The position numbers were made by a program, and so were the translations under genes. Of a stretch of 64,000 bases of DNA, positions 10,317 to 64,000 are shown piece after piece (position 1 is the stretch's first letter; the number at the start of each line of letters is the position of its first letter). The notes under the pieces were generated by a model. The model searched no databases and was not told the origin of the DNA. It worked only from the letters and a program-made list of their open reading frames with translations. Source of the DNA: Candidatus Dadabacteria bacterium (GTDB lineage Bacteria > Desulfobacterota_D > UBA1144 > Nemesobacterales > CSP1-2); NCBI GenBank assembly GCA_963805855.1, contig CAWDVW010000007.1, positions 544,001 through 608,000 on the forward strand, read 5' to 3'.

Positions 10317-11774
10317 TTAATTAGTCTCTCTTTTTTCTCCGTACGCGACCTTTTTATATATTTCTTCATCCAACCCTCCCCCCTCAAATCTATCGTCGAG
10401 CTCCGCGATCTCCTGTATCAACAAGGCCTTTTCCTTTTCAATATCATTCAAGGTCTCCTTGCTTTCGTTTCTATCAAACCCCTTCCCTTTGAAAATAAAT
10501 GCGTATAGTATCCCACCCCCGACAACAAGCAAAACCACGCCAACTGCCGCCCACTTGGCGATTGATTCACGATCAAACGATTTATTAATAGTTACCACTA
10601 TTGAGGAGCCAGATTTTAGATTGCTGCCAGTCCACTGAACAAACTTTTCATTTTGAATATCTACGACATCACCTCCACTAAGACCCTCCACAGTCACCTT
10701 CTCATCCAAATCAGAAACAAGAAGTAAGAAACTATCAGTGGGATAATTCACCCTGTCTTCGATCACATTTTTCCCGGATTTAAATGGAATTGTATACGTG
10801 TAAACTACCCTGCTAACACCTGGCCAAATCGGAGACGTATCCGAAAATCCGGATTCGGTTTGAACAACGTTTTCACTCGTAATACCATGGATGAACTGAA
10901 TATTGCTAGCATCACCGGGTAGATGAAACTTTAAGGTCTCCCTTTTACCATCAACCACCTCAGAACCGACGTATATCTTCTTATCTTTGTTTTCAAACAT
11001 CAGTAATTCTGCAACCGAAATCGAGTCCGTAGCGACCTGTAAAATCATATGAGCTTGTTTTATTATTATTTCACTGTCGCTTTCGGTTGGTTCATATACG
11101 GGTAGCTCAGTAGTCTTCGTATCCTCATCCGGGTAAAAAACCAACTTATCCGTTACATATTCGGTGCCCCTATAATTTAGGGTAATCGTATAGCTACGGT
11201 TCCAGGGTAAATCTCTGAATTCAAAAGCTCCATTTTTGTCTGTCATAAGTTTCTTTTCATCCGTAACACGATCTCCTAACATTTCACGCAGGGTGAGTTC
11301 GATTCCACCCGTGAGCTCGTCACTAGTTTTGTTCGTGACACTACCCTTAATATCACCATAATCTTTTGTAGATTGAACGGGCTTCTTAGAAAAAAGATAG
11401 TCTGCAATGACGTCAATGTGAGCTTGCGGAACCTGTAGCGGAGGCATCGGAGGATAGCCCTCGTTTATGGGCATTTTACCCTTTGCCTGGTACACCTGTT
11501 GAGGATTCTCTATCCATTGCTTTATTTCATCTTTACTATATTTGCTGCTGATCCCTGCCAGGTCTGGGCCCACAAATGTACCCCTGCCAATTGTATGACA
11601 ATTAACGCATCGATTTTGGATAAATAGATCCTTTCCAAGATCCGCTTTCTCGGCATCCACCTGAGCAAATATATCCACTCCTAAAAAGACCGTAGACGAC
11701 AGAAGCAAAAATGCGATCGTCGAGATAACAGACAAATTATTTATTCCTTTCAAATTAGGCACCTTAGCTGACAT
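10317..11774 (-). CDS. Monoheme cytochrome c fused to a carboxypeptidase-regulatory-like beta domain and C-terminal TM/coiled coil (ccm operon accessory protein)
   Basis: CVNCH ... GPDL ... MPP class I cytochrome c domain, beta-rich middle region, TM helix near the C-terminus. The true end may be 10286 if the A5 run at 10351-10355 has an extra base. Confidence 0.75.
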   Translation of the reverse strand: MSAKVPNLKGINNLSVISTIAFLLLSSTVFLGVDIFAQVDAEKADLGKDLFIQNRCVNCHTIGRGTFVGPDLAGISSKYSKDEIKQWIENPQQVYQAKGKMPINEGYPPMPPLQVPQAHIDVIADYLFSKKPVQSTKDYGDIKGSVTNKTSDELTGGIELTLREMLGDRVTDEKKLMTDKNGAFEFRDLPWNRSYTITLNYRGTEYVTDKLVFYPDEDTKTTELPVYEPTESDSEIIIKQAHMILQVATDSISVAELLMFENKDKKIYVGSEVVDGKRETLKFHLPGDASNIQFIHGITSENVVQTESGFSDTSPIWPGVSRVVYTYTIPFKSGKNVIEDRVNYPTDSFLLLVSDLDEKVTVEGLSGGDVVDIQNEKFVQWTGSNLKSGSSIVVTINKSFDRESIAKWAAVGVVLLVVGGGILYAFIFKGKGFDRNESKETLNDIEKEKALLIQEIAELDDRFEGGGLDEEIYKKVAYGEKRETN

Positions 11775-12291
11775 CTTTTAGGCCGATACCGCACCTTGAA
11801 CAAAAAAGATCCCCTGCGCTGTATTGCCTCCCACAATTCATACATGTTAGATATTTATTTTTATCGTTGTTCTGTTTTCGGGCTTTCAAAATTTCCTCTT
11901 CGATTTCATTTTCTTCCGGTAACTTTGACTTCCTTATTGCCGTTATCTCTTTTTCTAATTCATCTTCTAACTCCGTAGAATGTACACCTTTACCAATTTC
12001 ATCTATCTCTTTAAGTACGGACACGGCTTTTGCTTTGTAATCTCGTTTAAGTTCGTCATAATCTTCTCTCGATAGTTTTCCCAGTCCATAATCAAATTCT
12101 ATATCATTTAACGCCGTGTAAAGTAATTCCTTCTCAGAGTTAAGCTTTTTCAACTCTTTTAGAGAAGGGTTTTCAACAGGATTAGATATCTGCTCAATTG
12201 GGTTTTCTACGTCGGCGTTTTTTTTGAAGAAAGGCAAGGTTATAAAGACTGCTGTAAGAATCACTATCGCCAACAAGATAATTATTTCCAA
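11764..12291 (-). CDS. CcmI-like membrane protein with C-terminal zinc ribbon
   Basis: N-terminal TM, L.DIEFDY..GKLS.EDY motif, CxxC...FCxxCG; lies downstream of ccmF. Confidence 0.75.
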   Translation of the reverse strand: MEIIILLAIVILTAVFITLPFFKKNADVENPIEQISNPVENPSLKELKKLNSEKELLYTALNDIEFDYGLGKLSREDYDELKRDYKAKAVSVLKEIDEIGKGVHSTELEDELEKEITAIRKSKLPEENEIEEEILKARKQNNDKNKYLTCMNCGRQYSAGDLFCSRCGIGLKDVS

Positions 12292-12357
12292 TTTGACATT
12301 CCTAGCTTTCTGGAACTATTCAATAATAAGGATTAAAATGGCAATGAGAGGAAATTT

Positions 12358-14358
12358 CTAAACTTCTGCCGTCATGTCCTTTGATCCTATGCTATATCTG
12401 GCAAGTACTTCCTGTTCCTTTTTGATGGGAGTAGGCCACATAATAACGATTGCCCCCAAAAGTAGAACCACGCCGCCGGCCCAAATCCACGATATCATTG
12501 GATTTATTAAAACCCTGAAGCTAGCGCTACCATCTTGAAAATTTGAAAGTATTACATAGAGGTCATGTGTAAACGAAGAAAGAATTGCAACCTCAGTTTC
12601 TTGATTAATTTCACGATTTCCGGAGTAAATATACACATTCTTTTCTGGAACTATTTCTCCGACCTTTCTCTCGCCATTAAATACTGAGAGGCTAGCGGCT
12701 GTCACATGTTTCGCATCTGTCGTATACTGGTTGATATTTCCAAACCTCAAAGTGACATCACCAACACTCATAGATTCCCCTGGCTTCAGTGTTGCCTCTT
12801 TTTGCTTAACAAAAACAGATGAGCCAGTCACACCGATCACTACCAAAACAACTCCGAGGTGGACTATGTAACCACCGTATCTCCTGCGGTTCTTGGATAC
12901 GAGTCTCCCGAAGGCTCGCAAATAATTTTCCCCTCTCCTAACCCGGACCTTCATCCCCCTGTAGTATTCTACAAACACGGTTGCGGTCACATACGCGCAC
13001 AGACCGAAGGAAATAAGAGCATAAATGTGTCTGATTCCGAAAACAAATAAGATTACAGATGTCAGAATTCCGGTTGCTACTGGAAACGTGAAATTCCTGA
13101 TTAAATTATCCTTCGACGCCTTCCTCCAGGAAATTAGCGGACCAATTCCCATCAGAAGTATCAATACTAAGCCGATCGGAACGTTCACCTTATTAAAATA
13201 CGGGGGACCGACAAGAATCTTGTTCCGCGTGACTAGTTCGGATATGAGTGGGAATATTGTTCCCAGAAATACGGTAAAAGCAGCGCCCAGAAAAAGAAGG
13301 TTATTAAATATGAAAGCGCTCTCTCTAGATAAAATGGAGTCGAAATGATTATCGCTTTTAAGATCATCTAATCTAAGAATAAACATGGCAAATGAGAAAA
13401 TAAGTATGAAACCTATAAAACCTAAGAAATAGGGACCAATGTCTGACTGGGCAAACGAATGAACCGAGGAAAGTATCCCGCTTCTGGTAACAAAGGTGCC
13501 AAATATTGCCAGGAAAAACGTTAGTATTATCAGCGATAAATTCCACTTTTTTAGCATTCCTCTTTTTTCTTGAATCATTACCGAGTGAACAAACGCCGTT
13601 CCGACAAGCCATGGCATAAATGCGGCATTCTCCACGGGATCCCATGCCCAGTAACCACCCCAACCTAATTCCAAGTAAGCCCACCTTGCACCCAGCAACA
13701 AACCAAGGCTTAAGAATGTCCATGCAAGCAGTGCCCATTTTCTAGATTGTCTTATCCACTCGTCATCCAACTTGCCGCTCAGAAGGGCGCCCATCCCAAA
13801 TGCAAAGGGTACCGTGACTCCAACATAACCAAGGTATAAGGTTAGAGGATGAATGGCCATATAGCCATTCTGCAGAATCGGGTTTAGCCCCCGTCCCTCT
13901 TCAGCGACGAAGGGTAGCTTTTCGAAAGGACTCTCAACAAAGGCTACAAGAAATATGAAGAAGGCCGAAACAGCAGCGAGTGTCGCGAGGACATATGGTG
14001 TGAACCTGCTTCGTCGCCTGTTCTGAAGCACTACAAGGGATGTATATATTGAGAGTATTAGGCACCATAGAAGCAGGGATCCAGCCTGGCCCGCCCACAA
14101 TGCGGTTATCCTGTAAATGGTAGACAGATCGCTACTTGCGTTTAAGGCGACATATTTAAGGCTGAAATCTAGATTCAGGAGAGCATGTATCAACGAGACG
14201 GCTGCTATGATTAGAAGAAAACAGACTGCAAGTGACCCGTTCTCGGCACTTTTGATTAAATCGTTCCTTCTGGTTTTCGCTCCAACGACCGAAGCAAATA
14301 TCGCGTACACGGAGAGTATAAAAGCTAAAAATATAGAAATGCTTCCAGTTTCGACCAT
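12358..14358 (-). CDS. ccmF: Cytochrome c heme lyase CcmF
   Basis: GLNPILQN, IHP, WAYLELGWGGYWAWDPVENA and SVHSF. Confidence 0.98.
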   Translation of the reverse strand: MVETGSISIFLAFILSVYAIFASVVGAKTRRNDLIKSAENGSLAVCFLLIIAAVSLIHALLNLDFSLKYVALNASSDLSTIYRITALWAGQAGSLLLWCLILSIYTSLVVLQNRRRSRFTPYVLATLAAVSAFFIFLVAFVESPFEKLPFVAEEGRGLNPILQNGYMAIHPLTLYLGYVGVTVPFAFGMGALLSGKLDDEWIRQSRKWALLAWTFLSLGLLLGARWAYLELGWGGYWAWDPVENAAFMPWLVGTAFVHSVMIQEKRGMLKKWNLSLIILTFFLAIFGTFVTRSGILSSVHSFAQSDIGPYFLGFIGFILIFSFAMFILRLDDLKSDNHFDSILSRESAFIFNNLLFLGAAFTVFLGTIFPLISELVTRNKILVGPPYFNKVNVPIGLVLILLMGIGPLISWRKASKDNLIRNFTFPVATGILTSVILFVFGIRHIYALISFGLCAYVTATVFVEYYRGMKVRVRRGENYLRAFGRLVSKNRRRYGGYIVHLGVVLVVIGVTGSSVFVKQKEATLKPGESMSVGDVTLRFGNINQYTTDAKHVTAASLSVFNGERKVGEIVPEKNVYIYSGNREINQETEVAILSSFTHDLYVILSNFQDGSASFRVLINPMISWIWAGGVVLLLGAIVIMWPTPIKKEQEVLARYSIGSKDMTAEV

Positions 14359-14359
14359 T

Positions 14360-14776
14360 TTATATATTTTCAGACCTTTTTAAAGAATCTGTGGATTCGT
14401 ACTTGGTGGGACATTTGGCCAACAACAAACTAGCCACAAATACGTTATCCGGCGTATATAGACCCTCAACGACCGCTTCGATGTCATCTTTAAATATATC
14501 AGGAACTATTCCCTTATACTTTACATCCAATGTTTCTTCCCCGTCCGCAATCGTAAACTCTAGACTTCCATCAATCTCATTCCTAATCGATCCGGGAACG
14601 ACCTTTCCCGAGACCCTTACTTTTTGCTGATACACTGAAGGTACCTTATCCTTCAATTCCTGAACGGTAAGATAGTAGATCATCGTATCATTGACACCAC
14701 CGTAAACGAGGTATGCTATAGCAACTGCGATCACAACGATGGCTACTATGAATTTTGTCTTTCCTTTTAGCATCAA
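14360..14776 (-). CDS. ccmE: Heme chaperone CcmE, CxxxY variant
   Basis: YYLT, VRVSG, YKGIVPDIF and AKCPTKY. Confidence 0.96.
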   Translation of the reverse strand: MMLKGKTKFIVAIVVIAVAIAYLVYGGVNDTMIYYLTVQELKDKVPSVYQQKVRVSGKVVPGSIRNEIDGSLEFTIADGEETLDVKYKGIVPDIFKDDIEAVVEGLYTPDNVFVASLLLAKCPTKYESTDSLKRSENI

Positions 14777-14803
14777 TTAACCGTCCTCACTGCAATAAAT
14801 AAG

Positions 14804-14947
14804 CTACCGACCTCCTTCATTTGAATCGAGAGAAGACTCGATAGACTCTAACTGATTTTTCAAGTCATGGTTTTTTCTAATAAGATAATAAACATATAGT
14901 AAAAGTACAATCCAAAAAATTACTTGCGACCAGAAAAGATAAGACAT
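14804..14947 (-). CDS. ccmD: CcmD family small membrane protein (47 aa, below the track cutoff)
   Basis: Manual translation MSYLFWSQVIFWIVLLLYVYYLIRKNHDLKNQLESIESSLDSNEGGR*; located between ccmC and ccmE. Confidence 0.85.
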   Translation of the reverse strand: MSYLFWSQVIFWIVLLLYVYYLIRKNHDLKNQLESIESSLDSNEGGR

Positions 14948-14952
14948 CTGCT

Positions 14953-15612
14953 TTACCTTGCCTCCATTAATCTAAGCCTAAGGATATTATCTTTCATGAT
15001 TTCTAGTTCTACTCTATGCTTAAGTATCAACAGGAACAAAAAAGTAAAAGCTACTAGTGTAACGAGCAATGCGACCATCATCTCCGGCGCAATACCACCG
15101 CCACCGGATCCAAATACAACCGGGGAGATTCCACGCATAACTCTCGCCGAAATGTAAACAAGCGGCAAGTCTAAAAACGCGATAATCCCAAAAACAGCGG
15201 CAAATTTTGCTTTCCTTATATCATTACCCGCAGATGAACGCAGTATCATATAAACAATGTAGAGAATCCAGAGAATAAATGTAGTAGTGAGTTGCGGATC
15301 CCAAGTCCACCAAGTCCCCCAGATGGGTTTTGCCCAAATACTACCCGATACTAGTGTAAGCGTAATAAAAACCACACCTATTTCAGCGGCAGAGTAAGCC
15401 AGGATATCCCAGTTACGACTCTCTTTTCTCAGATACTGTATACTTGCAACAAATACGATTACAAATGAAATAGTGGCGACCCAAACGGTTCCCATATGGA
15501 AATAAAAAATTTTTTGGATCGGTCCCATAACCTTCTCGGTCGGCGCGTAAATAAATGAAGCATAGAGCGAACCAATCATTGATATAAAAGTCAGAGCTAA
15601 AAGAAGATTCAT
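14953..15612 (-). CDS. ccmC: Heme exporter CcmC
   Basis: KIFYFH and the WWD domain [17 protein letters not shown]. Confidence 0.96.
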
Positions 15613-17569: not shown

Positions 17570-19534
17570 ATGTTTAGCAAAGCCAAGTCTGAGAACCCCA
17601 CTCATCCAAAGAAGGCTGCTTTAATCGGAAATCCTAATGTCGGGAAAAGCTTAATTTTTGGTGCCCTTACCAAAAGATACGTTACCGTTTCAAATTATCC
17701 AGGAACAACGGTCGAGATAACCTCGGGAGAGATGAAAATCGGCTCAGAAACGATTTCTCTTATAGACACGCCCGGGGTTAATAGCCTGACGCCGACGTCG
17801 GAAGACGAAAGGGTTGTTAGAAATATTATATTCGAAGATGACATTAACTTTATAATTCAGGTTATAGATGCAAAAAACCTGGAGAGGGGTCTGTATATAA
17901 CAATTCAGGTTGCAGAAATGGGACTTCCCTTACTCATAGTTCTTAATATGATGGATGAAGCGCAACAAAGAGGAGTCGACATTAACATAGCAAATCTCTC
18001 TCATAAACTTGGGGTTCCTATCGTTCCGACTGTGGCAATCGAAAGAAAAGGAATAGAAGGAATTAAGAACGAACTTGTAAATTCGAGTATCCCTCAACTG
18101 AGAGTTCCTTACTCTCAAGCCATAGAAGGAATGTTAGCAGAAGTGAAACAAATTCTATCAAACCCTCATTTCTCAAGATTTATAGGCCTTTCTATCATAT
18201 CAGGCGACTGCAGAATGGATGAAGACATTATTAACAGAATTCCTAAAGAAAAGCTAGACTCAATTGCTGGACTTGATCCTCTCTCCAAGCTCGGCTCAAG
18301 GGAATATCCTATAAGCTATTTCATCGGTCTGAAGAGGCTTGAGCTCGCAAAAGAAATCGTTCAGAAGGTATCAACTGCCTCTTTTAAATCAGGCAACCGA
18401 ACCCTGGATCTTTTAGGACGGACATCGACTCATCCTGTATTTGGAATTCCTATATTAATTTTGATACTGTACCTCGCATATCTCTTCGTGGGAAAACTGG
18501 GGGCAGGAACATTCGTTGATTTCTTGGAGGTAACCGTCTTTGAAGGATATATAAACCCCTTTTTTAAAATAGTCATACCCAAAATTATTCCCTTCAAGAT
18601 ACTGATTGATTTTCTGGTAGGTGATTTTGGAATAATTACTATGGCGCTGACATACTCACTTGCAATCATTTTTCCGGTAATCTGCACATTTTTCATCTTT
18701 TTTAGTATCCTCGAAGATTCCGGATACCTCCCAAGGCTGGCCATTATGGTTGACAGGGTGTTTAAGTTAATGGGGCTAAATGGAAAAGTTGTACTCCCGA
18801 TGGTACTGGGGCTGGGATGTGACACAATGGCAACCCTTACCACGAGGATGCTCGAGACGAAAAAAGAAAGGCTAATTGTGATATTTCTTCTGGCTGTAGG
18901 AATCCCGTGTTCGGCCCAGCTCGCTGTGGTATTTGCTATGGCCTCTACTCTACCTCCGTGGGGTATTTTCTTTTGGGGAGTAGAAATTTGTGTTGTTCTT
19001 TTCGCAGTTGGCTTCCTCGCTTCTTACTTTGTAAAAGGAGAAAGCCGAGACCTTATTATTGAGGTTCCGCCCATAAGGATTCCACAAATCGGCAACGTAA
19101 TCGTTAAGACTATTGCGCGGCTTGAATGGTATTTGAAAGAAGCGGTCCCGCTCTTTATCTTGGGAACGATAATACTTTTTGTCTTGGATAGGCTCAAGGT
19201 TCTTGGATTTTTACAGAATCTGGCTTCACCGATCGTAGTAAAATTTCTTGACCTTCCTAAAGAGGCCACTAATGCCTTTTTAATCGGATTCCTGAGAAGA
19301 GACTATGGTGCTGCCGGCCTTTTCGATCTTCAACAGAGTGGATATTTGAGCAGCCATCAGGTTTTGGTAAGTCTTGTCACGATTACGCTATTTGTCCCCT
19401 GTGTTGCCAATTTTCTAATAATTATAAAGGAACAAGGGCTCAGAACCGCCCTTATTATAGTTGGGATAGTTCTTTTCATAGCCATTATTGTAGGAGGTAT
19501 GACGAATTGGATACTGTGGAGCCTCGGAATCTAA
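17570..19534 (+). CDS. feoB: Ferrous iron transporter B
   Basis: GNPNVGKS, NYPGTTVE, DTPG, NMMD, LEDSGYLPRLA and gate motifs. Confidence 0.97.
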   Translation: MFSKAKSENPTHPKKAALIGNPNVGKSLIFGALTKRYVTVSNYPGTTVEITSGEMKIGSETISLIDTPGVNSLTPTSEDERVVRNIIFEDDINFIIQVIDAKNLERGLYITIQVAEMGLPLLIVLNMMDEAQQRGVDINIANLSHKLGVPIVPTVAIERKGIEGIKNELVNSSIPQLRVPYSQAIEGMLAEVKQILSNPHFSRFIGLSIISGDCRMDEDIINRIPKEKLDSIAGLDPLSKLGSREYPISYFIGLKRLELAKEIVQKVSTASFKSGNRTLDLLGRTSTHPVFGIPILILILYLAYLFVGKLGAGTFVDFLEVTVFEGYINPFFKIVIPKIIPFKILIDFLVGDFGIITMALTYSLAIIFPVICTFFIFFSILEDSGYLPRLAIMVDRVFKLMGLNGKVVLPMVLGLGCDTMATLTTRMLETKKERLIVIFLLAVGIPCSAQLAVVFAMASTLPPWGIFFWGVEICVVLFAVGFLASYFVKGESRDLIIEVPPIRIPQIGNVIVKTIARLEWYLKEAVPLFILGTIILFVLDRLKVLGFLQNLASPIVVKFLDLPKEATNAFLIGFLRRDYGAAGLFDLQQSGYLSSHQVLVSLVTITLFVPCVANFLIIIKEQGLRTALIIVGIVLFIAIIVGGMTNWILWSLGI

Positions 19535-19719
19535 TCTCCTGCCCGTTGTGTGGAGAGGAATTTCATAGGGAGGAGGGAACCGAAAAGTGTATAAGTTGCC
19601 CTATAAGTATAGGAGACTGCCTGTTGATCTGCTGCCCGAGATGTGGATATTCCTTCCCCCAGGAGTCAAAACTTATCCTGTGGCTAAAGAAAATCTTTAA
19701 ACCAGAGGGAAGAGCATGA
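19507..19719 (+). CDS. Small Cys-rich FeoB-associated protein (FeoC-like metal or Fe-S binder)
   Basis: CPLC...CISCP...C...CCPRCGY; overlaps feoB and the regulator gene (ATGA). Confidence 0.7.
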   Translation: MDTVEPRNLISCPLCGEEFHREEGTEKCISCPISIGDCLLICCPRCGYSFPQESKLILWLKKIFKPEGRA

Positions 19720-20466: not shown

Positions 20467-20482
20467 TGGCACATTTATTGCA
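20467..20482 (+). promoter_or_regulatory. Sigma-54 promoter
   Basis: TGGCACATTTATTGCA, a perfect TGGCAC-N5-TTGCA. Confidence 0.85.
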
Positions 20483-27969: not shown

Positions 27970-27970
27970 T

Positions 27971-29827: not shown

Positions 29828-29828
29828 C

Positions 29829-50074: not shown

Positions 50075-50077
50075 TGA

Positions 50078-52691: not shown

Positions 52692-52875
52692 CTCGAACGA
52701 GCCTCCTTTTATAAAAAGATTAATTTTCGACTTCATACCTTCTCCTAACACCCTTCTACATAACCTATAAACCTCGTAATCCATCTATTGTTTCAAGCAT
52801 TAGCCTGATAATTCCCTGCAGCTTGTTACTGGCTATACACTGTCCCTGCTTTGACACACAACCCCACCGTTGTGC

Positions 52876-55004: not shown

Positions 55005-56302
55005 TTTGTCACCGAGAAATTATAGCTGAGTCCCAAGTCAACTCTCGCGTCCTGATTGAAATCAGGATTCGTATTTAATTCAACATCAGCCCTTAATACC
55101 AGGTTTTTAATAAGAAGGTATTCAAAGCCCATTATGTAGCTAAATGCGTTACCCTTCTGATTGGTTATCTTTTTGTAATTGGCATAGGCAAAGGCGAATT
55201 GTAAATCCAATCCGTTGTAGATCTGTTCGTTTAAATTAAAATTGAGACCAAACGCATGGTCCTTGTCCCCTGCATCGATATAATAAAAACCATTAAACGC
55301 CGTGAGACCGATATCGCGCCAGAAGTCCCACGAAAATCCAAGCCGTGCGATATTCCCGTTTCTGTCTATATCATCAAGAATATGGTAGTTAGAATAGGCG
55401 TAACTGGCTTTAACCGTGAGGAAATTGGCAGGTATTAAGGTCACACCCACCTTGGCCTGATTAAGGCGTCCAACCGAAAAGATGTCATAAATCGGATCAA
55501 GCTGGAATTTTTCCCGCTCCTCATCAAGATTGTAGTTATCGTATTCGAGATTGACGTATAGGGATTTAGTCACTGTGATTCCCAATCCGGCTGTCCCCAA
55601 GCCTAGATTTCCCTGGCCTACATCAATTTCGGCCAGGCCGTAAAATTCTGCGAAATCGGTAAAAGGTATAGCCCTGTTGAGGGAGATATTTACAAAGTTT
55701 CTTGAGGAAAAATCCTGCGGATTATAAAATTGATAGCCGACTGAGAATAAAGCGCCCAGGATCTTACTGGACTTCAATTTAATTCCTGCTGCAGCAAAGC
55801 TTCTGAAAGGTCTCTCGGGCTCAGGCTGGAGATCTTTATCCTGGTACCCGCCGTACGCTACAAGTTCGATTCCGTCCACCGGCTTAAACCTTACCAAACC
55901 GCCGTCGAGAAGAAAAAAGGTGACGCTTTCTGTTATGATCTGCCTGCCTAAACGAACCTCAAACGTATTTGATTTATTAGAATATTGTAAAAATGCGTTA
56001 TAAACATCGAAAGACTCGTCCTCGCCACTGAATATATCCCTGTATCTCATAAAGGTGTTAAAAGAGAGGCCGCTTGATGGGCTTGAGGCATTCAATTCCA
56101 GATACTGATAAAACGGATAGAGATTCTTTCTGCTTCTATCCGGCGGAGTACGAATCGGACTGGGCGCCTGAAATAGAGAAAGGGTGTTCCCGAAGAAACC
56201 TAAGCTTCTCGGACGGACCATCTCTTCCTGGCCGTACCCAGACCTTTCCCCCAACAAGATGATTAGAATTATGAATGATGCGGGTAGAAATGCTCTTTTC
56301 AC
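55001..56302 (-). CDS. Outer-membrane beta-barrel (porin of a porin-cytochrome conduit)
   Basis: Signal peptide, alternating amphipathic strands rich in aromatics, VRLGRQ...DGG and C-terminal VDLGLSYNF; overlaps both neighbouring cytochrome genes. Confidence 0.82.
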   Translation of the reverse strand: MKRAFLPASFIILIILLGERSGYGQEEMVRPRSLGFFGNTLSLFQAPSPIRTPPDRSRKNLYPFYQYLELNASSPSSGLSFNTFMRYRDIFSGEDESFDVYNAFLQYSNKSNTFEVRLGRQIITESVTFFLLDGGLVRFKPVDGIELVAYGGYQDKDLQPEPERPFRSFAAAGIKLKSSKILGALFSVGYQFYNPQDFSSRNFVNISLNRAIPFTDFAEFYGLAEIDVGQGNLGLGTAGLGITVTKSLYVNLEYDNYNLDEEREKFQLDPIYDIFSVGRLNQAKVGVTLIPANFLTVKASYAYSNYHILDDIDRNGNIARLGFSWDFWRDIGLTAFNGFYYIDAGDKDHAFGLNFNLNEQIYNGLDLQFAFAYANYKKITNQKGNAFSYIMGFEYLLIKNLVLRADVELNTNPDFNQDARVDLGLSYNFSVTK

Positions 56303-56615: not shown

Positions 56616-58779
56616 TCATTGAGGACGATTGATACGTTGATCCGGCGGGAGAAAAGGCAGATGTACCACTTCCACACCCAGAGGCTCACCAACGCCGTGG
56701 CAGTTTATACACGCGCTCTCAGGCTGAGGTCCTCCCAGATGGTTTTCTCCCGTAAGTGCGTCCCCAGCTGCATTGACTCCAAGATTGTCATGACATGCCG
56801 TGCATGTCGAAATAATCGGCGTGGTCGTAAAATTTGTCCAGCTTTCCAGTGTATCGTCAGTCTTTGTAAAGTCGCGTACGATGGTGTCCAGTATGTCAGG
56901 TCCTAAAATACCACGACCGGGGTCTAAAAGATTGGTGGTAGGCAGATGGCATACCTCACAGTCGGCCGTATTGCCCGGGTATAGGAGATCGCTAAAGTTC
57001 TGGGGGTTCCCGCCGAATCCGTAGATAATATAGGGTTTTACCGTCAGGTTCTCCCCTGTATGGATCTTATGGATCATGACCCTGAAATTAATCGAAGCCG
57101 TAGGCATCGCTGCGTCGGCGGGCCTTGTGTCTATGTCGTCGTTAGAGGGGTTATGGCAGAGGACACAATATTCGGTATTATTCCTGAGATTCCCGTGGAT
57201 GCTGAAGTCCTTGGAAAAAGTCCCATGGCAGGCATTACAGAACTGATCCTCCGTGGTATTATCAACTACAATCCGCCTCGGCACGGCGACTGGGTCGGTT
57301 ACAGGAAAATAGAAAACCACATTTTGCCCCGCCTCCTCCACTTCCTCCTGCAGGATAAGATTATTGCCCCCAACGGTTCTTGGAATCCTGCCTTCGATAC
57401 CCACGGCATACGTGCCCGTGCCATTCGGCGGTATCATTCCCTTAAACGTATAAGTAAAGTTTCCCGAAGCATCGGGACCCACCGAGTCTTGCGCCTGTCT
57501 TTCTCGCAAAACATTATCCTCTCCCGGCACGGGTGGTACATTGCCATGATAGTCCTGAATATTATAGTCTGTTGTAGGGCCGGATATCACCAGGCTCGAT
57601 GGAATTCATATCTTTCGGGTCAATAACGTCTCCGGCGTCCGTTTTAATGCTGTAAGTCACAACGGCATGCTCCCCCGGGCCCACCGTAGTCGACCCGGTC
57701 TCAGCACTCCGTACATCCACAATCTCGAAGTTCACCCCCGGGAGGGTGTCTGCCCTGAGCGGGATTGTATGAGCACCTGTCACAGAACGATCAAACTGTG
57801 TTCCAGAATCAGGAATGTGGCAGCCGGAACAATTTCCGTCGTTAAGCTGCACACCGCCGCCGTGGTTTTCTCCGGTGTCAAAGTTGACATCATCATGACA
57901 GGACCCGCAGGCCACCCTGGACGGATCTTCCTTATAGTCATCACTCTGAGTCGCTTGAGATGTATGACATTTTGTGCAGTTCCTTATGTCCTGAGGGAAC
58001 TCGACGTTAGAGTAATCGTGTCCTCCAACCACGTACGGGATTCCAGCCTCAACACTAGGGAGCATCGCCCCCCTGTGAATCTTATGCACCATGACCTTAA
58101 AATCGACGGTGTTGCCAGCGTCGTCAGTCGTCTGAGGGGTATGACATAGCACACAGAGCCTCACATCCCTCCTGAAACCACCGTGTAATGCTAGGGGATC
58201 ATGACAAACATTACAGGCGTCGGTACTCACTACATCCCTGACAACTGTCACCGTAGCTCCCGATGGCACAAAGTCAAACGCGCTGTTCGCAACAAACCTC
58301 CTAGCAACGTTATCAACGGTAGCCTGCCTGTCTGCATAAATACCCACAGTATGAGTTACATCCATCTCATAGCCTTCGGGCAGGACAGTATGAAAGGAAT
58401 ACTCATAAACACCATCACCTAGGGGTTCCAGGGTTCCCTCGTTTGAGTCTTCGGCGGCAGCTTGGCCGTCCTCGTTGGTTATGTAGTCGGTGTATTGGCT
58501 GTCACCCTTTCCAATGAATGCAATAATAAGGCGTATCCTCACGCCTTCAGTGGTCAGAGGGTTCCCCATATCGTCTGTAAGCTTAATGGTCACAATCGGT
58601 CTTCTATCAGGCGGTATCGTGGCATCAAGAATGTCGACTATTAGACCGCTGCCGGTAGCAAGCGGTGGGGGATTTACGCCCCCTCCTCCCCCGTCATCGC
58701 ATCCCACAAGTGTTAAGGAAAATCCCGATAAAATGATAAGTAAGAGATTAAAAAGGGTGTACTTTTTCACGGCTCTCAT
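56616..58779 (-). pseudogene. OmcA/MtrC family decaheme lipoprotein split by a +1 frameshift near 57597 (pseudogene or sequencing error)
   Basis: Lipobox LVGC; beta domain, 5 hemes, beta domain, 5 hemes, with CNxCH...HG.R...CVLCH and MxHKIH duplicated. Removing one base joins ...DMNSI to SLVISGPTTDY. Confidence 0.88.
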
Positions 58780-58829: not shown

Positions 58830-58892
58830 GGCAATTTTAGTGCCAGGATATTGAAGTTTCTCTATTCTTGCAGTCTCGCAAGAATGGTGCCA
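58830..58892 (-). promoter_or_regulatory. Two tandem sigma-54 elements
   Basis: TGGCACTAAAATTGCC (58830-58845) and TGGCACCATTCTTGCG (58877-58892). Confidence 0.75.
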
Positions 58893-59789: not shown

Positions 59790-60917
59790 TCACTGGGTTT
59801 TATCGACGAACCCTTCCTCATCTCCGCCCGGGCCGTAGTGGCAGTTGTAGCACCAGCCGCTATCGATGGTGATGTCTGCGGGATCATCCTCTTTTGAGGT
59901 CAAAGTGTCGTGGCAGATCATGCATTGAGCAGGGTCTTCGCCCTCGGTATCACCATGATTGTCCTGCGTGGCCGAGCCAAGAATCCACGTCGATAAAGGA
60001 GGCATAATAGCAAAGGGGAAGGGATGGTTAGTATTAAGGGGTGTAAAAGAAGACACCGGATCCGCCGTGCCGAGCACGTTTATCTCTAGACTTTGGGGAT
60101 TGGTCTTCACGGAGATTAGGACGTAGGCGAACTCCTCTGGGGAGACGTCGGTGCCATCTGAGTACTTAACCACTGGATGTTCGTCTTGTCCTTTGGAGAA
60201 GGTTAGGATGCGGTATGTCGGATCTTCCAAGCTGCCGATGACCGTCGCCCGTAACGCTTCCCCCACAAACTGGTTAACATTTACTGTTGGGTCATCAATG
60301 CGTGTCGGCACAAGATCATCGCCCAGGTCATTCACCTCGATGAAGAAATCGCCCATCGTCACGCCGCTCAGATCAAACACTGCAGTTGTGCCGTCCATCG
60401 ATATGGTTCCCGTCGCGACGACCATGCTATCCGTATCAAGCAGTTCAGCCTTTGTGAAGGATGTCGCCTTGGTGTCTCCGTGGGTTATGCTGGGGTCCAG
60501 GGTGAGCGAAAGTGTGGCACCTGGGGGGGGTGTAGGTGTAGGGCCAGGGGTTGGTGTGGGAGCAGGCGTTGGTGTGGGAGCAGGCGTTGGTGTGGGAGCA
60601 GGCGTTGGTGTGGGTGTCGGCGCTGGTGTGGGAGTCGCAGTCGGCGTGGGTGTCGGACTGACTATCGGGATACACAACCCAAGATCTGCAGAACATTGCG
60701 CATTTTGGAAGAATTGTCCTCCCTGATCTGTACAGTTGTTTTGATCTATATTACCCTGACAAGTTTCAAGAAATTCACAACAATTCTTGCCCCCTTGATC
60801 TCTATTGTCGATGTCACAGCTATACAGTGCATAGAGAGTAAATATTAGTAATGAAAAAAGTAGTAAAAATGTGCCCGACAGTCTTATCCTCTTATTTATA
60901 TTTATTAGCCCACTCAT
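59790..60917 (-). CDS. Diheme lipoprotein cytochrome c with Cys-rich module and Pro/Thr repeat linker
   Basis: Lipobox LYSC, 5-Cys module, (PT/PAPT)n linker, beta domain, CMICH and CYNCH. Confidence 0.85.
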
Positions 60918-60982: not shown

Positions 60983-61112
60983 GAAGCAATTTGAAAAGGC
61001 AATTTTCAGCCCCGATGAGAGACGGGAGAATGTTGACGAAGACCCATCCCCGCGCCAGACTATGGGCTATCCCACCAGCAAGACTGGTGGGCTTATATGT
61101 TATGCTTCCCAA

Positions 61113-61250
61113 AGACCAACTTGGAGAGAGGACCCTGGTGGGCTTGTGGCCTGACCACTTTGGGTAGTTATGTCCCTCTCCAAGCTAATCATGCTCTAAG
61201 TTCCATAGTGTTACGTTCCTGGAGAACCCATATAAGAATAACAGAGCATC
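61113..61250 (+). ncRNA. IS110 bridge RNA (target-binding and donor-binding loops)
   Basis: Stem 61120-61133/61172-61184 encloses CTGGTGGGCT and TGGGTAG. Stem 61191-61197/61243-61249 encloses CATAGTGTTAC and CATATAAG. The RNA boundaries are approximate. Confidence 0.85.
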
Positions 61251-61288
61251 GAGGTCATTTAAAATCTAATTAATAAGGAGGCATAGAT

Positions 61289-62518
61289 ATGCTTTACTGT
61301 GGTATTGACTGGTCTTGGGAGCAATTAACTTTGTTCATCATAGATGACAAAGGTAATCCGATTAAAGATTTTGTAATCAACAATGATCTCGATGGCTTCA
61401 TGTATGCCCTTTCCACTATTCGTCACCTGTGTAAAGAGCACGAGATCATCTTCGCCATTGAGACCTCTAATCAAAGGGTTATAGACTTTTTAATCAGCTA
61501 CGACTACAAGGTCTATCTAATAAATTCCAACTCTATGGATAAGTTCAGAAAGAGGTATAAGACTTCAGGTGTAAAAAGCGATAGTTTCGACGCATTTGTT
61601 ATAGCAAATGTCTTGCGCACAGACATAAGTACTTTGAATGCAGTCACTGCAGACGATCAACTCACCCAAGAGCTCGGAATCGTTCTAAGGGATAGAGAAT
61701 CACTCGTTGAACTTAAGACGAAACTATCGAATCAGCTCAGAGATTCTCTGCGACAATATTTTCCACAGGCCCTCAATCTATTCAATGATATATCTTGTAT
61801 TGTGTCTCTGCAGTTCTTAGAGGCTTTTCCCACACACTGTGATGCTCAGAAGGCTACAAAGAAACAAATACAATCAGTTCTTAGAGAAAATGGCTATTAT
61901 TCTGAGAAGAAATTGCGAGAGATAACCCGAGTCCTAAGGAAAGAGCACTTTCCTCCAAGAGCCAACTTAATAAGGGCTGAGAAAGAATTTACACTTTTCC
62001 TTGTATCCATGATTAAACCACTAATACGGCAGATTAAGGCTTACGATGAGAAGATTGAGTCTCTTTTAGAAAAACACCCTGATACTAAGCTATTCTTAAG
62101 CCTACCGGGGGTAGGAAATAACTTGGCTGGTGGCATGATATCTACCCTGAGAGATGATCGGTCTAGATTTGACTCAGCTAAACAAATCCAATCCCTAGGA
62201 GGCACTGCCCCCATAACTAAATCAAGTGGTAATTATACGTATACTCAATTCAGATTCAGGTGCAACAAGACCTTAAGAAAAACCCTGCATCAATTTGCCT
62301 TCAGTAGCATTACGAAATCCCTTTGGGCTAAGAATTACTACAACAAAAAGCGTGGTGAGGGAAAAACAAGTTCACATGCTTTCCGGTGTCTTGCTAATGC
62401 ATGGGTTAAAGTTATATTTGCTGTCTGGAAAAACAAAACCGTTTATGATGAGAACCGTCATCTAGCATCTGTTTCGAGACATATGATGTCGCAAGATTAT
62501 GTGTTACCTTTGACATAG
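61289..62518 (+). CDS. IS110 family DEDD recombinase/transposase
   Basis: GIDWS, AIET, KSDSFDA, SLPGVG, GTAP...SSG (catalytic Ser) and AGGAGG RBS. Confidence 0.96.
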   Translation: MLYCGIDWSWEQLTLFIIDDKGNPIKDFVINNDLDGFMYALSTIRHLCKEHEIIFAIETSNQRVIDFLISYDYKVYLINSNSMDKFRKRYKTSGVKSDSFDAFVIANVLRTDISTLNAVTADDQLTQELGIVLRDRESLVELKTKLSNQLRDSLRQYFPQALNLFNDISCIVSLQFLEAFPTHCDAQKATKKQIQSVLRENGYYSEKKLREITRVLRKEHFPPRANLIRAEKEFTLFLVSMIKPLIRQIKAYDEKIESLLEKHPDTKLFLSLPGVGNNLAGGMISTLRDDRSRFDSAKQIQSLGGTAPITKSSGNYTYTQFRFRCNKTLRKTLHQFAFSSITKSLWAKNYYNKKRGEGKTSSHAFRCLANAWVKVIFAVWKNKTVYDENRHLASVSRHMMSQDYVLPLT

Positions 62519-62574
62519 TGTTACTACCCATTTATTTGTAATTATTTCTTGAATAAGAAAGATTTTGTCTGGAT

Positions 62575-62607
62575 AAAAAAAGGGAGGAGGGTTAACTACC
62601 CTCCTCC
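62575..62607 (-). terminator. Rho-independent terminator
   Basis: GGAGGAGGGT-N5-ACCCTCCTCC with an A7 tract on the + strand. Confidence 0.85.
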
Positions 62608-62642
62608 TAATCTACTGACTTGAATGTCATTTCAATTGGGTT

Positions 62643-64000
62643 TTATTGAGTGGCTAGGAAGTTAGCAATCGCCTGGACTTCTGCAGGTGTGAGAGAACTG
62701 AGGAATCCCATCCCACCCTTATTCTCGTCAATAGCAGTTTGTATCTGGGACGCGGAATCCCCTTGGACATTTACGCCACTGCTGCCTCCAGAACCATCGG
62801 GACCGTGACACCCAGCGCAGTTAGCTGCATAAAGAGCAGCACCATCCTGAGGAATAGGAGTAGCTGTCGGCATTGGTGTGGGAGTGGCTGTTGGAGTAGG
62901 AGTCGGAGTGGCTGTTGGTGTAGCTGTCGGCGTTGGCGTGGGAGTGGCTGTCGGTGTGGGTGTTGGTGTAGCTGTCGGCGTTGGCGTAGGAGTAGCTGTC
63001 GGTGTAGGAGTTGGAATAGGCACTAGGCCGGATCTCAGTTCACAATCATCCGTATCCACCGAAGAACTGTCTCTTTGATCGACAGCCTGCACGCCGCCGT
63101 CAATTACACAAATTGCAAATGGATCCCCAGATGGAAGAAAGTCCACTATAGAGTTATCTTCAGACAAGACTCCATTATTATCTGCAGTGACGAATATATT
63201 GCCTCCCACCAGAGCCACTGCCGAGTCGTTGGAAGTGCGAATCCCGTTATTACTCGCATTAATCGTCAGTGTTGGTGTCGCAGTTGCGTTAAGATTAACA
63301 TTCGCAGAATCCTGAGCAAGAATTCCATCTTCACAATTGTCGAGTGTAAGGTCGGCTACCACGATGTCGACACTGGAATCTCCCGAAGCTCCAATACAAT
63401 TCTCGCCTTCCCCTTCTACCGTAAGATCGGCGTTCGGTTCATTAATTGAAAATATCCCGCTACCACTCGTTCGGATTACAGGAGAGGTGATGTCAAAGTT
63501 ATCAATTTGCAAAGTGGGCGGATCGACATCTGTAATAAAAGTCAAATCTAAATCGACAGTACTGCTCGAAGTAACATTTATCTGAATACTCGCGCTTTCA
63601 GTAGCCGGTGGAAGAAGTGAAACCGTAATGGTATATGCGCCTCCCGACGGAACGTCGAGAGAATAGTTACCCAAATCATCGGTCGTAGTCGAAGTAACCA
63701 GGGACCCGTTCTGGAAAACCTCGACGAGAACAGATTCGCCCACCTGGGCAATAGAATCTTTTGTAAGTGTAAGAAAATTCTTGATCCTTTCTAATATCGA
63801 AGGCTTTTCCGGCGCTGGCGCATTCATCGCACCAGGGCCAACCACATTTATGGTGCCGACTATCAAAGTCTGACCTTTACCCCCTTGATCTCTGTTGTTT
63901 ATATCACAGCTATATAGTGCAAATACAGCGAGCAATAATAATGAGAAAATGAGTACGGATGCGCCTGATACTCTTACCCTCCTATTTATACTCTTTAAAC
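62643..64000 (-). CDS. Lipoprotein with Pro/Thr repeats and a C-terminal PgcA-like monoheme domain; start lies just outside the window
   Basis: The frame is open to the window edge (LKSINRRVRVSGASVLIFSLLLLAVFALYSC). It has a long (PT/ATPT)n tract, then DGAALYAANCAGCH...NKGGMGFLSSLT. Confidence 0.88.
   Translation of the reverse strand, partial: LKSINRRVRVSGASVLIFSLLLLAVFALYSCDINNRDQGGKGQTLIVGTINVVGPGAMNAPAPEKPSILERIKNFLTLTKDSIAQVGESVLVEVFQNGSLVTSTTTDDLGNYSLDVPSGGAYTITVSLLPPATESASIQINVTSSSTVDLDLTFITDVDPPTLQIDNFDITSPVIRTSGSGIFSINEPNADLTVEGEGENCIGASGDSSVDIVVADLTLDNCEDGILAQDSANVNLNATATPTLTINASNNGIRTSNDSAVALVGGNIFVTADNNGVLSEDNSIVDFLPSGDPFAICVIDGGVQAVDQRDSSSVDTDDCELRSGLVPIPTPTPTATPTPTPTATPTPTPTATPTPTPTATPTATPTPTPTATPTPMPTATPIPQDGAALYAANCAGCHGPDGSGGSSGVNVQGDSASQIQTAIDENKGGMGFLSSLTPAEVQAIANFLATQ

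Follow-up and report, generated by a model that had tools for sequence, protein, structure and literature searches.

A clustered respiratory cytochrome locus with a candidate outer-membrane conduit in an uncultured salt-marsh bacterium related to Candidatus Dadabacteria

Introduction

In Geobacter sulfurreducens, the ext (Cbc6) cluster extHIJKLMNOPQS encodes a porin-like protein of ~45 kDa together with a Rieske protein, a cytochrome b, a five-haem ExtKL-type cytochrome and other multihaem cytochromes (PMC5877670), and the Geobacter Pcc system (OmaB-OmbB-OmcB) likewise gathers a porin-like barrel in one cluster with a periplasmic and with lipoprotein multihaem cytochromes (PMC4245776, in part). 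Here we analyse a 64,000-nt stretch of DNA (the window) in which positions 10317-64000 (the block) hold the principal locus for respiratory cytochromes of an uncultured bacterium from salt marsh. Its lineage carries the label Thermodesulfobacteriota, and its named relatives are Candidatus Dadabacteria. The block combines five candidate quinone-pool modules with an OmcA/MtrC-family cytochrome gene and a compact module around an unnamed outer-membrane barrel. It probably encodes extracellular electron transfer to Fe(III)/Mn(IV) by a facultative aerobe, with electrons presumably flowing outward.

The likeness to ext lies in gene neighbourhood: in relatives from two other genera (G007 and G011; G001 is a relative from the same genus) the barrel module abuts an ExtKL-like/Rieske/cytochrome b operon. 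In contrast to ext, the corresponding models score below cut-off here, a rhodanese gene and a selenocysteine codon are both lacking, the barrel matches neither ExtI nor any other family, and an MtrC-family cytochrome is added. An earlier, sequence-only reading of this DNA had described the Geobacter genes as dispersed, which is only partly true, since ext joins the porin to the Rieske/cytochrome b complex (PMC5877670). To Pcc (OmaB-OmbB-OmcB and ExtABCD) the block is likened by operon logic and not by sequence family, with 4, 7, 2 and 10 haems here versus 8 and 12 there. With Shewanella MtrCAB (PDB 6R2Q), OmcA, MtrF and UndA it shares a TIGR03507 surface decahaem cytochrome with two PF22113 domains and a lipobox, and its barrel aligns with MtrB (Z 16.6). 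Unlike MtrCAB, however, it has no MtrA/DmsE decahaem, and its MtrC-family gene is frameshifted. The barrel is also smaller, with 433 amino acids (aa) and ~22 strands versus ~650-700 aa and 26 strands for MtrB.

The architectures of ImcH, CbcL and CbcBA all recur in the block, the split pair described below having the CbcA/CbcB layout (bioRxiv 10.1101/2021.04.15.440034, in part). A sigma-54 activator beside bc-type cytochrome genes recalls BccR of G. sulfurreducens (same preprint, in part), but the Geobacter imcH and cbcL genes are reported as constitutive and BccR-independent (PMC6295460; bioRxiv 10.1101/2021.04.15.440034), whereas here they are adjacent behind one sigma-54 box. Compared by description, the fused and split CbcL-type proteins carry 11 and 9 haems here versus 9 and 7 in Geobacter. 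The sequence-only reading had also named a PgcA component, and the lipoprotein architecture stands: two proteins resemble PgcA of G. sulfurreducens, in build only, by carrying haem domains on long Pro-Thr (PT) linkers, PT repeats being a feature of PgcA itself. The haem number differs, with two and one here versus the three given for PgcA (PMC5732950, in part), and the proteins here have extra beta-sandwich domains.

Outside the lineage, the nearest relatives of the MtrC-family protein are those of Acidobacteriota clusters of the order mtrC-mtrA-barrel-cbcL-imcH. In one of these (L013; L-numbers denote fetched loci), MtrC is followed, in place of the 433-aa barrel, the heptahaem and the tetrahaem, by a decahaem of the DmsE/MtrA family (194.8 bits, cut-off 192.2) and a protein of 653 aa, after which stand CbcL-like and ImcH-like genes. 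In Desulfobacterota with co-occurring Mtr, Omc and Pcc, the MtrC-family gene sometimes stands away from mtrAB, with a transposase and biogenesis genes nearby (Shaw et al. 2025, PMC12133095, in part). The block resembles these genomes in having its MtrC-family gene apart from mtrAB and near cytochrome-biogenesis genes and a transposase, but those genomes, as described in the same part of PMC12133095, keep mtrAB and are mostly Desulfuromonadia, whereas here MtrC stands with a different conduit.

For the lineage itself, one sentence in the FeGenie paper reports Geobacter-like porin-cytochrome operons in Candidatus Dadabacteria (PMC7005843), a table in PMC6295460 lists one CbcL homologue in the phylum, and the one mention of Dadabacteria in PMC8258643 is about acetate activation. 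The ImcH, CbcL and MtrC families, MtrC in Desulfobacterota and porin-cytochrome operons in Dadabacteria are therefore known in print. In the literature on Dadabacteria electron-transfer cytochromes, some mentions of which went unchecked, we found no pairing of an MtrC-family cytochrome with a small unnamed barrel and a heptahaem, no conserved sigma-54 wiring of a whole block of this kind, and no bracketing of one by two ccm halves.

Results

Most multihaem genes of the genome lie in one block

Haem-attachment motifs were counted in a six-frame scan of open reading frames (ORFs) for CXXCH and CX3-4CH, families were assigned by Pfam and NCBIfam profile searches against curated cut-offs, and transmembrane (TM) segments were taken from a hydropathy scan. 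The genome assembly comprises 3,114,175 bases in 9 contigs (93.84% complete, 0.79% contamination), so that genome-level negatives below hold for a 93.84% complete genome. Between 10317 and 64000, 19 ORFs carry 85 CXXCH and 2 CX3-4CH motifs, 87 in total, very close to the ~19 proteins and ~88 motifs of the sequence-only reading; two of these ORFs are halves of a single OmcA/MtrC-family gene, and another, which has just one CXXCH, encodes a sensor kinase. Across the whole assembly, 14 ORFs have at least three CXXCH (93 motifs), and 11 of them (75 motifs) fall within 20607-58779, which is 1.7% of the genome, a concentration of cytochromes far above chance. The three multihaem ORFs outside the block are a pentahaem beside a 995-aa molybdopterin-family protein and two large proteins on other contigs. 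The pentahaem, of 189 aa, directly precedes the 995-aa gene (G000:C7:54543-56582), and the pair resembles ActA/ActB of alternative complex III.

Profile matches, haem motifs, TM segments and the barrel model together bear out the parts list of the sequence-only reading, namely five quinone-pool modules, periplasmic carriers, a porin and lipoprotein cytochromes (Table 1), as well as its description of a hybrid system, in that an OmcA/MtrC-family gene does adjoin ImcH- and CbcL-type genes.

That reading had also raised the prospect of a chimeric assembly. We compared the window with 80 kb of contig from a separately assembled, short-read Thermodesulfobacteriota metagenome-assembled genome of the same genus, which holds the closest public relative of the MtrC-like gene, and found 58 of the 65 window ORFs matched at E<=1e-5 with their order kept, inverted. 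Identity is 57-98% for 56 of the 58, while two PT-repeat lipoproteins match only partly; the seven unmatched ORFs are three at 34471-36513 including an SBF-family transporter, three small ORFs and an IS110 transposase. Further support came from contigs of marsh runs laid on 44001-64000 in 30 bins, which give no levels, strand or transcript starts, and those of three marsh DNA runs cover 29-30 of the 30 bins. Because the relative's contig is colinear and the marsh-run contigs cover these bins, a chimera is excluded for the part examined. The synteny check that the sequence-only reading had proposed extends further, with gene order kept in the same genus and the core recurring in two further genera.

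The comparison did reveal an assembly indel at 52458/9, where a base of the window is lacking both in the relative and in the contigs of each of the four runs, and as a result a monohaem cytochrome of 143 aa reads as 115 aa. The corrected sequence at 52458-52459 contains GATC.

We also considered the block as a recently acquired mobile island and rejected this, as the left flank and core are syntenic in another genus; the syntenic flank includes an MFS transporter, cobA-hemD and neighbouring genes, though not uvrB. Searches of the window with Rfam at the gathering threshold and with a tRNA scan found nothing, so that no sign of an island linked to a tRNA is present. G+C in the window peaks at the genes for surface cytochromes (0.51-0.52 versus a mean of 0.437, sd 0.035).

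The outer-membrane module centres on an unnamed barrel

Downstream of the MtrC-family gene, the genes for a dihaem lipoprotein, the barrel, a heptahaem lipoprotein and a tetrahaem cytochrome overlap by 4-11 nt, and this order is kept in G001, G007 and G011. The barrel matches no Pfam or NCBIfam family and not ExtI, and contains no CXXCH. All of its 107 relatives are annotated as hypothetical, and those with named sources come from Thermodesulfobacteriota, Candidatus Dadabacteria (52% identity) and Candidatus Binatia (45%). An AlphaFold2 model from a 45-sequence alignment is all-beta with 24 strand elements (pLDDT 81.8, pTM 0.70), and Foldseek matched it to outer-membrane barrels only. In VIA-align the top matches are 22-strand TonB-dependent receptors, with FyuA aligned over 349 residues of the barrel part only (Z 20.3, root-mean-square deviation 3.6), while MtrB aligns over 337 residues (Z 16.6, root-mean-square deviation 4.4); a sequence search of the PDB gave one chance-level match. 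Since these structure alignments are confined to the barrel part of the TonB-dependent receptors, the model predicts a large outer-membrane barrel without a plug domain.

The heptahaem lipoprotein has 53 relatives, and an alignment of 42 of these retains all seven CXXCH, with the cysteine of the lipobox present in at least 90% of sequences. The barrel occurs in 13 of the 41 genomes of the order (own genome included), across three families; its matches in G005, G010, G011 and G033 each contain one stop (TAA, TGA, TAA and TAG, respectively), which may mark either a true break or an alignment that runs beyond the end of the gene. No DmsE/MtrA-family decahaem was found, the best window protein scoring 47.2 bits against a TIGR03508 cut-off of 192.2, and the MtrB/PioB model (TIGR03509) had no match in the organism's genome, in a search whose control likewise matched in none of 14 genomes. 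Five cytochromes carry lipoboxes, and the genome has a gene for a type II secretin outside the block (500.5 bits). A second secretin-like gene (G000:C5:49541-50770) matches the GspD model in two pieces with an internal TAA and is either a broken gene or an assembly error.

A 106-aa membrane ORF of no family lies at 16475-16795, and its homologues in G001, G003 and G007 are preceded by a sigma-54 box. In G007 this homologue stands directly before the 185-aa/ExtKL-like/Rieske operon, as the 104-aa ExtJ stands before ExtKL in Geobacter.

The MtrC-family gene is interrupted by one base

The OmcA/MtrC-family gene reads as two ORFs, of which the 405-aa half scores 258.7 bits with TIGR03507 (cut-off 209.3) over model positions 7-360 and the 324-aa half 151.6 bits over positions 407-672. 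Each half holds one PF22113 pentahaem domain with five CXXCH, the gene has an LVGC lipobox, and the PDB matches are MtrF, OmcA, MtrC and UndA (E 2.7e-27, for MtrF 3pmq, to 1e-9). It therefore has the ten CXXCH, two domains, lipoprotein signal and model score of the family, and lacks only the uninterrupted frame. The frame shifts at one extra G near 57597, outside a homopolymer and absent from the same-genus relative, and comparison with the intact 738-aa orthologue there (L001:3659-5875) places the change in the gene between nt 1182 and 1184; G011 likewise has an unbroken orthologue. In the bin 57341-58007 the three DNA runs have depths of 4.3, 3.4 and 28.8. Because the same runs correct 52458 yet report no indel at 57597, we lean towards a break that is real in the population and not an assembly error, coverage of the exact base not being established. 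To call the chain complete, as the sequence-only reading had it, is an overstatement, with the genome's sole MtrC-family gene frameshifted.

In a quick maximum-likelihood tree of 75 rows, unrooted and built from the best query matches with the N-terminal half standing for the window and five loci with ORFs below 550 aa left out, the window sequence groups with L001 and L002 (support 100), next to a Blastocatellia row (98). This group falls inside a 40-row clade (98) holding 35 Acidobacteriota, with 28 Pseudomonadota rows on the other side. Judged by this tree, transfer of the gene from an Acidobacteriota type is likely.

The other candidate surface cytochrome of high haem number is an 828-aa lipoprotein. 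Its core (residues ~180-670) occurs in 413 representative proteins at E<=1e-30 and is repeated up to ~20 times in some giant proteins. By sequence it matched no solved structure other than antibody linkers, through its poly-Gly run, and an atlas search gave generic C554/C7/MtrC-domain clusters only.

Five inner-membrane modules could draw on the quinone pool

The 25731-27239 product agrees with the definition of ImcH given in part of PMC6295460 (495-519 aa, three N-terminal TM helices, one CX3CH and six CX2CH) in length, helices, haem motifs and a NapC/NirT-like region. Its predicted TM segments (9-42, 34-53, 41-73 and 95-121) overlap and correspond to 3 to 4 helices, the CX3CH starts at residue 130, directly behind them, and six CXXCH follow; the NapC/NirT-like region scores 43.8 bits with PF03264 (cut-off 24.1) and 73.7 bits with the NrfH model. 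It is thus ImcH-type by architecture, and its only orthologues found were those of relatives and of Acidobacteriota loci.

The fused protein at 23522-25582 has the CbcL/MtoC/MtrH layout of an N-terminal multihaem c part and a C-terminal HydC/FdnI-type dihaem-b domain, and its 11 CXXCH lie within the 3-23 stated for that family in PMC6295460 (in part). Its PF01292 score of 29.9 bits is just below the cut-off of 30.1, and its b domain shares 37% identity (E 4e-41) with the b subunit encoded on its own at 31518-32312. The label 'split CbcL-like' given to the pair containing that subunit holds up, as the pair is colinear with the fused protein (30% identity in the c part, 37% in the b part). An assembly artefact as the source of the split was rejected, since a TAA parts both genes in the relative too.

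In the octahaem module, the NrfC/DsrO/TtrB-type 4Fe-4S subunit bears a twin-arginine signal and scores below cut-off with the NCBIfam models for TtrB (219.6 bits), DsrO (177.7 bits) and NrfC (151.9 bits). The Rieske protein of the bc-type operon has an RRDFF signal. NCBIfam matches of this operon are likewise all below cut-off (NF040886, ExtKL, 72.1 of 250 bits; NF040969, ExtP, 194.8 of 290 bits; PRK03735, 210.3 bits), as are those to ExtN and ExtO, and its PDB match is 5ze8 (1.2e-19). The ExtKL-like ORF has no in-frame TGA. PDB matches in the block also include the MccSep selenoprotein cytochrome and c552.

Sigma-54 boxes are enriched in the block

We scanned for sigma-54 boxes, which the sequence-only reading had not mentioned, as TGGCAC-N5-TTGC with at most one mismatch, calling those with GG and GC fixed strict. 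The window holds 12 matches versus 2.28 +/- 1.43 expected, and none of 100 shuffles reaches 12. Nine boxes in the window are strict, eight of them in the block. All eight lie between genes and upstream of operons, so that boxes stand before almost every operon: two are found ahead of the MtrC/barrel operon and one each ahead of the octahaem/NrfCD-CbcL-ImcH run, the bc-type operon, hemA, the 828-aa gene, the ferredoxin-like/citrate synthase operon and the SBF-transporter side. At 0.149 per kb (8 strict, 4 perfect) against 0.040 per kb in the genome (124 strict, 19 perfect), the block ranks first when the genome is taken in 550 windows of 54 kb, which average 2.17 matches (sd 1.8). Orthologous boxes were found in G001 (seven places), G003, G007 and G011, in the latter two also upstream of feoB. 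The genome encodes RpoN (398 bits), and one of its 11 strong activator genes lies in the block, a sequence pattern that suggests co-regulation of the block through these boxes by its own activator.

The box and flank at 58819-58845, upstream of the MtrC-family gene, are duplicated 816 nt further upstream, at 59635-59661 (85% over 27 nt), with repeat DNA between, and an earlier promoter may have been separated from the gene when a repeat inserted. In a sigma-70 and terminator scan of 51600-60000, the promoter count was near the shuffled expectation.

Metatranscriptome contigs lie on 46400-48617 (depth up to 67), 52034-52544, 54053-54420, 58023-58268 and 59781-60020, and 15 of the 17 RNA-library contigs are at least 99% alike to the window. 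Their cover is uneven, depth falling to zero across 48670-52004, where the regulator genes lie, and this speaks for RNA and against DNA carry-over. The stretch 51000-60900 was found in 24 listed runs, all salt marsh or marsh metagenomes, five of which hold at least half of the sampled words.

The core of the block is shared across genera

In G007 and G011 a compact version of the block begins with MtrC-like, dihaem, barrel, heptahaem, tetrahaem and 185-aa genes, followed by ExtKL-like, Rieske, cytochrome b and pentahaem genes. Only in G007 do a monohaem, the split CbcL pair, M56 peptidase, kinase and regulator come next, and in both genomes the last part runs through ImcH-like, CbcL-like, NrfD, NrfC and octahaem genes to feo genes and ccmCEF, with cobA-hemD ending the block in G007. 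On these contig stretches, hemA, the cupin, the 828-aa cytochrome, the sigma-54 two-component pair, citrate synthase and FrhB were not found within the compact block. With the core shared and these genes absent from it, the core is ancient within the family and was extended in the window's genus. Strong ImcH-like matches occur in six of the 41 genomes of the order, all six in the window's family (15 genomes).

Clustering of this kind is not singular. Among 79 MtrC-like loci, fetched from other genomes with an MtrC-like half as query, a gene was counted as a neighbour when it lay within 10 kb at a coverage of at least 50%; ImcH-like genes were found in 19, CbcL-like in 15, both in 11, Rieske in 7, cytochrome b in 7 and the barrel in one (L001). 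Linkage of MtrC, ImcH and CbcL thus recurs, by sequence, in Acidobacteriota, and part of this linkage is already in print.

Supply lines, neighbouring genes and repeats

Profile matches place ccm, feoB and hemA in the block and cobA-hemD upstream, as had been proposed, with the limits that hemA is in the block only in this genus and that the ccmBA genes are past the window end. There (window-equivalent 64816-71149) lie genes for a radical-SAM/SPASM protein, CcmB, a CcmA-like ABC ATPase, an AhpC/CcmG-like redoxin and a DsbD_N protein, those from CcmB to DsbD_N at 66309-71149 (CcmB PF03379 101.8 bits), with CcmB and the ATPase 2.3-4.2 kb past the end. With ccmCEF at the left, two maturation halves therefore bracket the cytochrome genes. 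System I is represented by CcmA, B, C, E and F, CcmA as the CcmA-like ATPase, while CcmD and CcmH were not identified among these genes. The 485-aa and 175-aa proteins downstream of ccmF are membrane proteins. The radical-SAM/SPASM gene (L184:816-1913; G000:C7:608816-609913) has 40% identical homologues between NrfD and CbcL-like genes in the two other genera (G007:C1:19682-20761 and G011:C17:12686-13759) and may be a conserved maturase.

The dCache-HAMP kinase at 27971-29827, beside the split CbcL-type pair, has a single periplasmic CXXCH and may be a haem-c redox sensor.

The IS110-family insertion sequence sits between genes, is absent from the same-genus relative, and is polymorphic: in runs X1 (depth 2.6) and X6 (depth 11.6, with a shorter side of 115 letters) the contigs pass straight from 61091 to 62524. 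Next to the element is a short repeat (~61058-61093), which several runs also connect with 52130-52194. High-copy repeats flank the MtrC/barrel operon, short ones at 58675-59560 and 52100-52200 having contig depths of 59-287 versus about 5-30 elsewhere, and 51939-51993 and 59217-59272 form a repeat pair that is 83-94% alike.

Table 1. Features of the window, with positions in window coordinates and the evidence for each
Feature	Position	Strand	Evidence
Fused cobA (uroporphyrinogen-III methyltransferase)-hemD (synthase)	7975..9504	+	TIGR01469 305.8 bits (cut-off 185), PRK05928-type HemD models
Monohaem cytochrome c with CarboxypepD_reg-like domains (485 aa) and TM/zinc-ribbon protein (175 aa)	10317..12291	-	PF00034 37.4 bits, PF13240 25.8 bits
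ccmF, ccmE, ccmC (system I)	12358..15612	-	PF16327 226 bits, PF03100 95.5 bits, PF01578 101.7 bits
feoB and DtxR-type/FeoA regulator	17570..20372	+	PF02421 186 bits; PF02742 88.4 bits with PF04023
Sigma-54 -24/-12 box, perfect, 126 nt upstream of octahaem gene	20467..20481	+	Conserved in G001, G007, G011, G003
Octahaem cytochrome (N-terminal TM anchor), NrfC/DsrO/TtrB-type 4Fe-4S subunit, NrfD-type subunit	20607..23368	+	8 CXXCH; PF13247 98.9 bits, PF03916 149.7 bits
Fused CbcL-type protein: 11 CXXCH and C-terminal dihaem-b (b561/FdnI-type) membrane domain	23522..25582	+	Motifs; PF01292 just below cut-off
ImcH-type inner-membrane cytochrome, 502 aa	25731..27239	+	N-terminal TM helices, CX3CH, 6 CXXCH; PF03264 43.8 bits
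NarL/LuxR-type regulator, dCache-HAMP kinase, 186-aa anchored protein, M56/M48-type membrane peptidase	27310..31460	-	Pfam
Split CbcL-type pair: 9-haem cytochrome with C-terminal TM helix, then dihaem-b subunit	32341-33411 and 31518-32312	-	PF01292 60.4 bits on b subunit
Periplasmic monohaem class-I cytochrome c, 110 aa	34077..34409	-	PF00034 48.8 bits
Sigma-54 box, then ferredoxin-like ORF, citrate synthase, FrhB-like flavo-FeS protein	36773..39775	+	Pfam
bc-type operon: ExtKL-like pentahaem (415 aa), Rieske, cytochrome b6 fused to subunit-IV-like part, pentahaem with C-terminal TM	39907..43470	-	PF00355, PF00033
Sigma-54 box, 151 nt upstream of bc-type operon	43621..43635	-	Conserved in G001 at 18507
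hemA (glutamyl-tRNA reductase), perfect sigma-54 box before	43812..45158	+	PF05201 182.6 bits
828-aa lipoprotein cytochrome, sigma-54 box before	45969..48585	+	IISC lipobox, 13-Gly linker, 10 CXXCH and 1 CX4CH
NtrC-type sigma-54 activator (receiver, AAA+, HTH_8) and HAMP histidine kinase	48671..51673 (activator 48671-50074)	-	PF00158 239.6 bits
Monohaem cytochrome c, 115 aa as read, 143 aa in relative	52437..52784	-	Extra base at 52458/9
Conserved anchored protein, 185 aa, one CXXCH, no known family	53151..53708	-	Beside module in G001, G007, G011
Tetrahaem periplasmic cytochrome, 177 aa	53855..54388	-	CXXCH count
Heptahaem lipoprotein, 208 aa	54378..55004	-	7 CXXCH, lipobox
Predicted outer-membrane beta-barrel, 433 aa, ~22 strands, unnamed family	55001..56302	-	AlphaFold2 model, structure alignment
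Dihaem lipoprotein, 99 aa	56299..56598	-	CXXCH, lipobox
OmcA/MtrC-family decahaem lipoprotein gene, split into 405-aa and 324-aa ORFs	56616..58779	-	TIGR03507
Two perfect sigma-54 boxes, 52 and 99 nt upstream of MtrC-family gene	58831..58892	-	Box scan
Lipoprotein with long (TPTPAP)n linker, 2 CXXCH	59790..60917	-	LYSC lipobox-like signal
IS110-family insertion sequence, 1432 bp	61092..62523	+	PF01548 108.6 bits, PF02371 62.6 bits
Lipoprotein with beta-sandwich domains, PT-repeat linker and C-terminal monohaem cytochrome c, 455 aa	62643..64000 (ends 64007)	-	LYSC lipobox-like signal

Discussion

The proposed route of electron export builds on the identities and architectures of the parts, the gene order kept in three genera, the barrel fold and the RNA-library contigs over several genes. 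At the inner membrane, as many as five modules could serve as alternative oxidants of menaquinol (ImcH-type, fused CbcL-type, split CbcL-type, octahaem/NrfC/NrfD, and Rieske/cytochrome b with its pentahaems), and the tetrahaem and monohaem cytochromes would carry electrons across the periplasm. The outer membrane would then be crossed through the ~22-strand plug-less barrel, presumably threaded by the heptahaem lipoprotein, with which it shares overlapping genes. Electrons would reach the surface on the OmcA/MtrC-family decahaem, the 828-aa 11-haem lipoprotein and the PT-linker lipoprotein cytochromes, if these are exposed and the parts contact one another as we suppose.

Several points weigh against export as the function of the locus. 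The frameshifted gene is the only TIGR03507-type gene in the genome, and as no run contigs show an indel at 57597 the break may be real. The contact between barrel and cytochrome is presumed. The ext cluster, to which several NCBIfam models liken parts of the block, is tied to selenite/tellurite reduction and not to Fe(III) in the relevant passages of PMC5877670. Two full haem-copper oxidase COX1 genes (541 and 519 bits) and the alternative-complex-III-like cluster could accept incoming electrons. Finally, direction is unreadable from sequence, as the sequence-only reading had rightly cautioned, since MtrC-type conduits and CbcL/MtoC homologues work both ways (PMC6295460, in part).

The last two points lead to the main rival as we rank the readings, inward uptake, in which the conduit would oxidise Fe(II), reduced humics or a partner cell and pass electrons through the Rieske/cytochrome b complex and monohaems to the haem-copper oxidases. 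Beyond the COX1 genes and the ActA/ActB-like pair (C7:54543-56582), it could draw on the bc-type complex and the three monohaem cytochromes of class I that the block encodes, on the occurrence of CbcL/MtoC homologues in Fe(II) oxidisers (PMC6295460, in part) and on a habitat of redox-oscillating marsh sediment. We nevertheless regard it as unlikely. ImcH homologues are reported from Fe(III) reducers only (PMC6295460), the block has no fused cytochrome-porin and its barrel no CXXCH, and the genome has no RuBisCO, acetyl-CoA synthase, NiFe hydrogenase or DsrA above cut-off, the reverse tricarboxylic acid cycle not having been searched for. The reported range of ImcH and the lack of the searched autotrophy markers tilt the balance to export, though neither settles it, and two haem-copper oxidases without any such marker fit a facultatively aerobic heterotroph. 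A third reading, to which we give less weight still, is that the locus serves respiration or detoxification of soluble or colloidal acceptors (selenite/tellurite, polysulfide, tetrathionate or nitrite) and not of minerals. The likeness of block proteins to the ExtKL, ExtP, ExtN and ExtO models of the 'selenite/tellurite reduction operon' and that of the NrfC-type subunit to TtrB, DsrO and NrfC would suit it, though all of these scores are below cut-off, as would the PDB matches to MccSep and c552; but no catalytic molybdopterin, NrfA or Otr subunit was seen in the block, the ExtKL-like ORF lacks an in-frame TGA, and an MtrC-family surface cytochrome and PT-linker lipoproteins would not be needed.

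The extra base in the MtrC-family gene raises instead the question of decay, in which the outer module is being lost in this strain and the chain is no longer complete. The sole gene of its family is split while its orthologues in G001 and G011 are intact, no run corrects the site even though its depth bin is covered in three DNA runs, IS110 lies 2.3 kb away and high-copy repeats flank the operon. Against this, the remaining shared genes, some 55 in number, are unbroken and 57-98% identical, indel errors such as that at 52458 are proven for the assembly, RNA-library contigs lie on both 58023-58268 and 54053-54420, and IS110 is intergenic and absent from some contigs, so we consider a decaying locus improbable. 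Electron export remains the reading we prefer.

A bolder version of the export reading would make this a third outer-membrane conduit architecture beside MtrCAB and Pcc: a plug-less ~22-strand barrel threaded by a heptahaem, fed by a tetrahaem and capped by an Acidobacteriota-type MtrC decahaem, with the whole chain and its haem supply and attachment forming one sigma-54 regulon under the in-block two-component system. We put this forward tentatively, as a possibility that we doubt more than we believe; if true, the block would be a near self-contained, transplantable electron-export cassette.

If electron export is correct, members of a little-known Dadabacteria-related lineage would be facultative metal respirers in marsh sediments, as the FeGenie sentence on porin-cytochrome operons already hints (PMC7005843). 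The compact outer module of ~5 kb, whose MtrC-family cytochrome has a small unnamed barrel as its partner instead of MtrAB, bears on the question left open by Shaw et al. (2025) of whether Desulfobacterota MtrC proteins work with MtrAB (PMC12133095, in part). The sigma-54 boxes and the in-block activator are a candidate single switch for the whole electron-export pathway, and with nearly all parts in one place the locus is a natural example that would be useful for moving such a pathway into other hosts.

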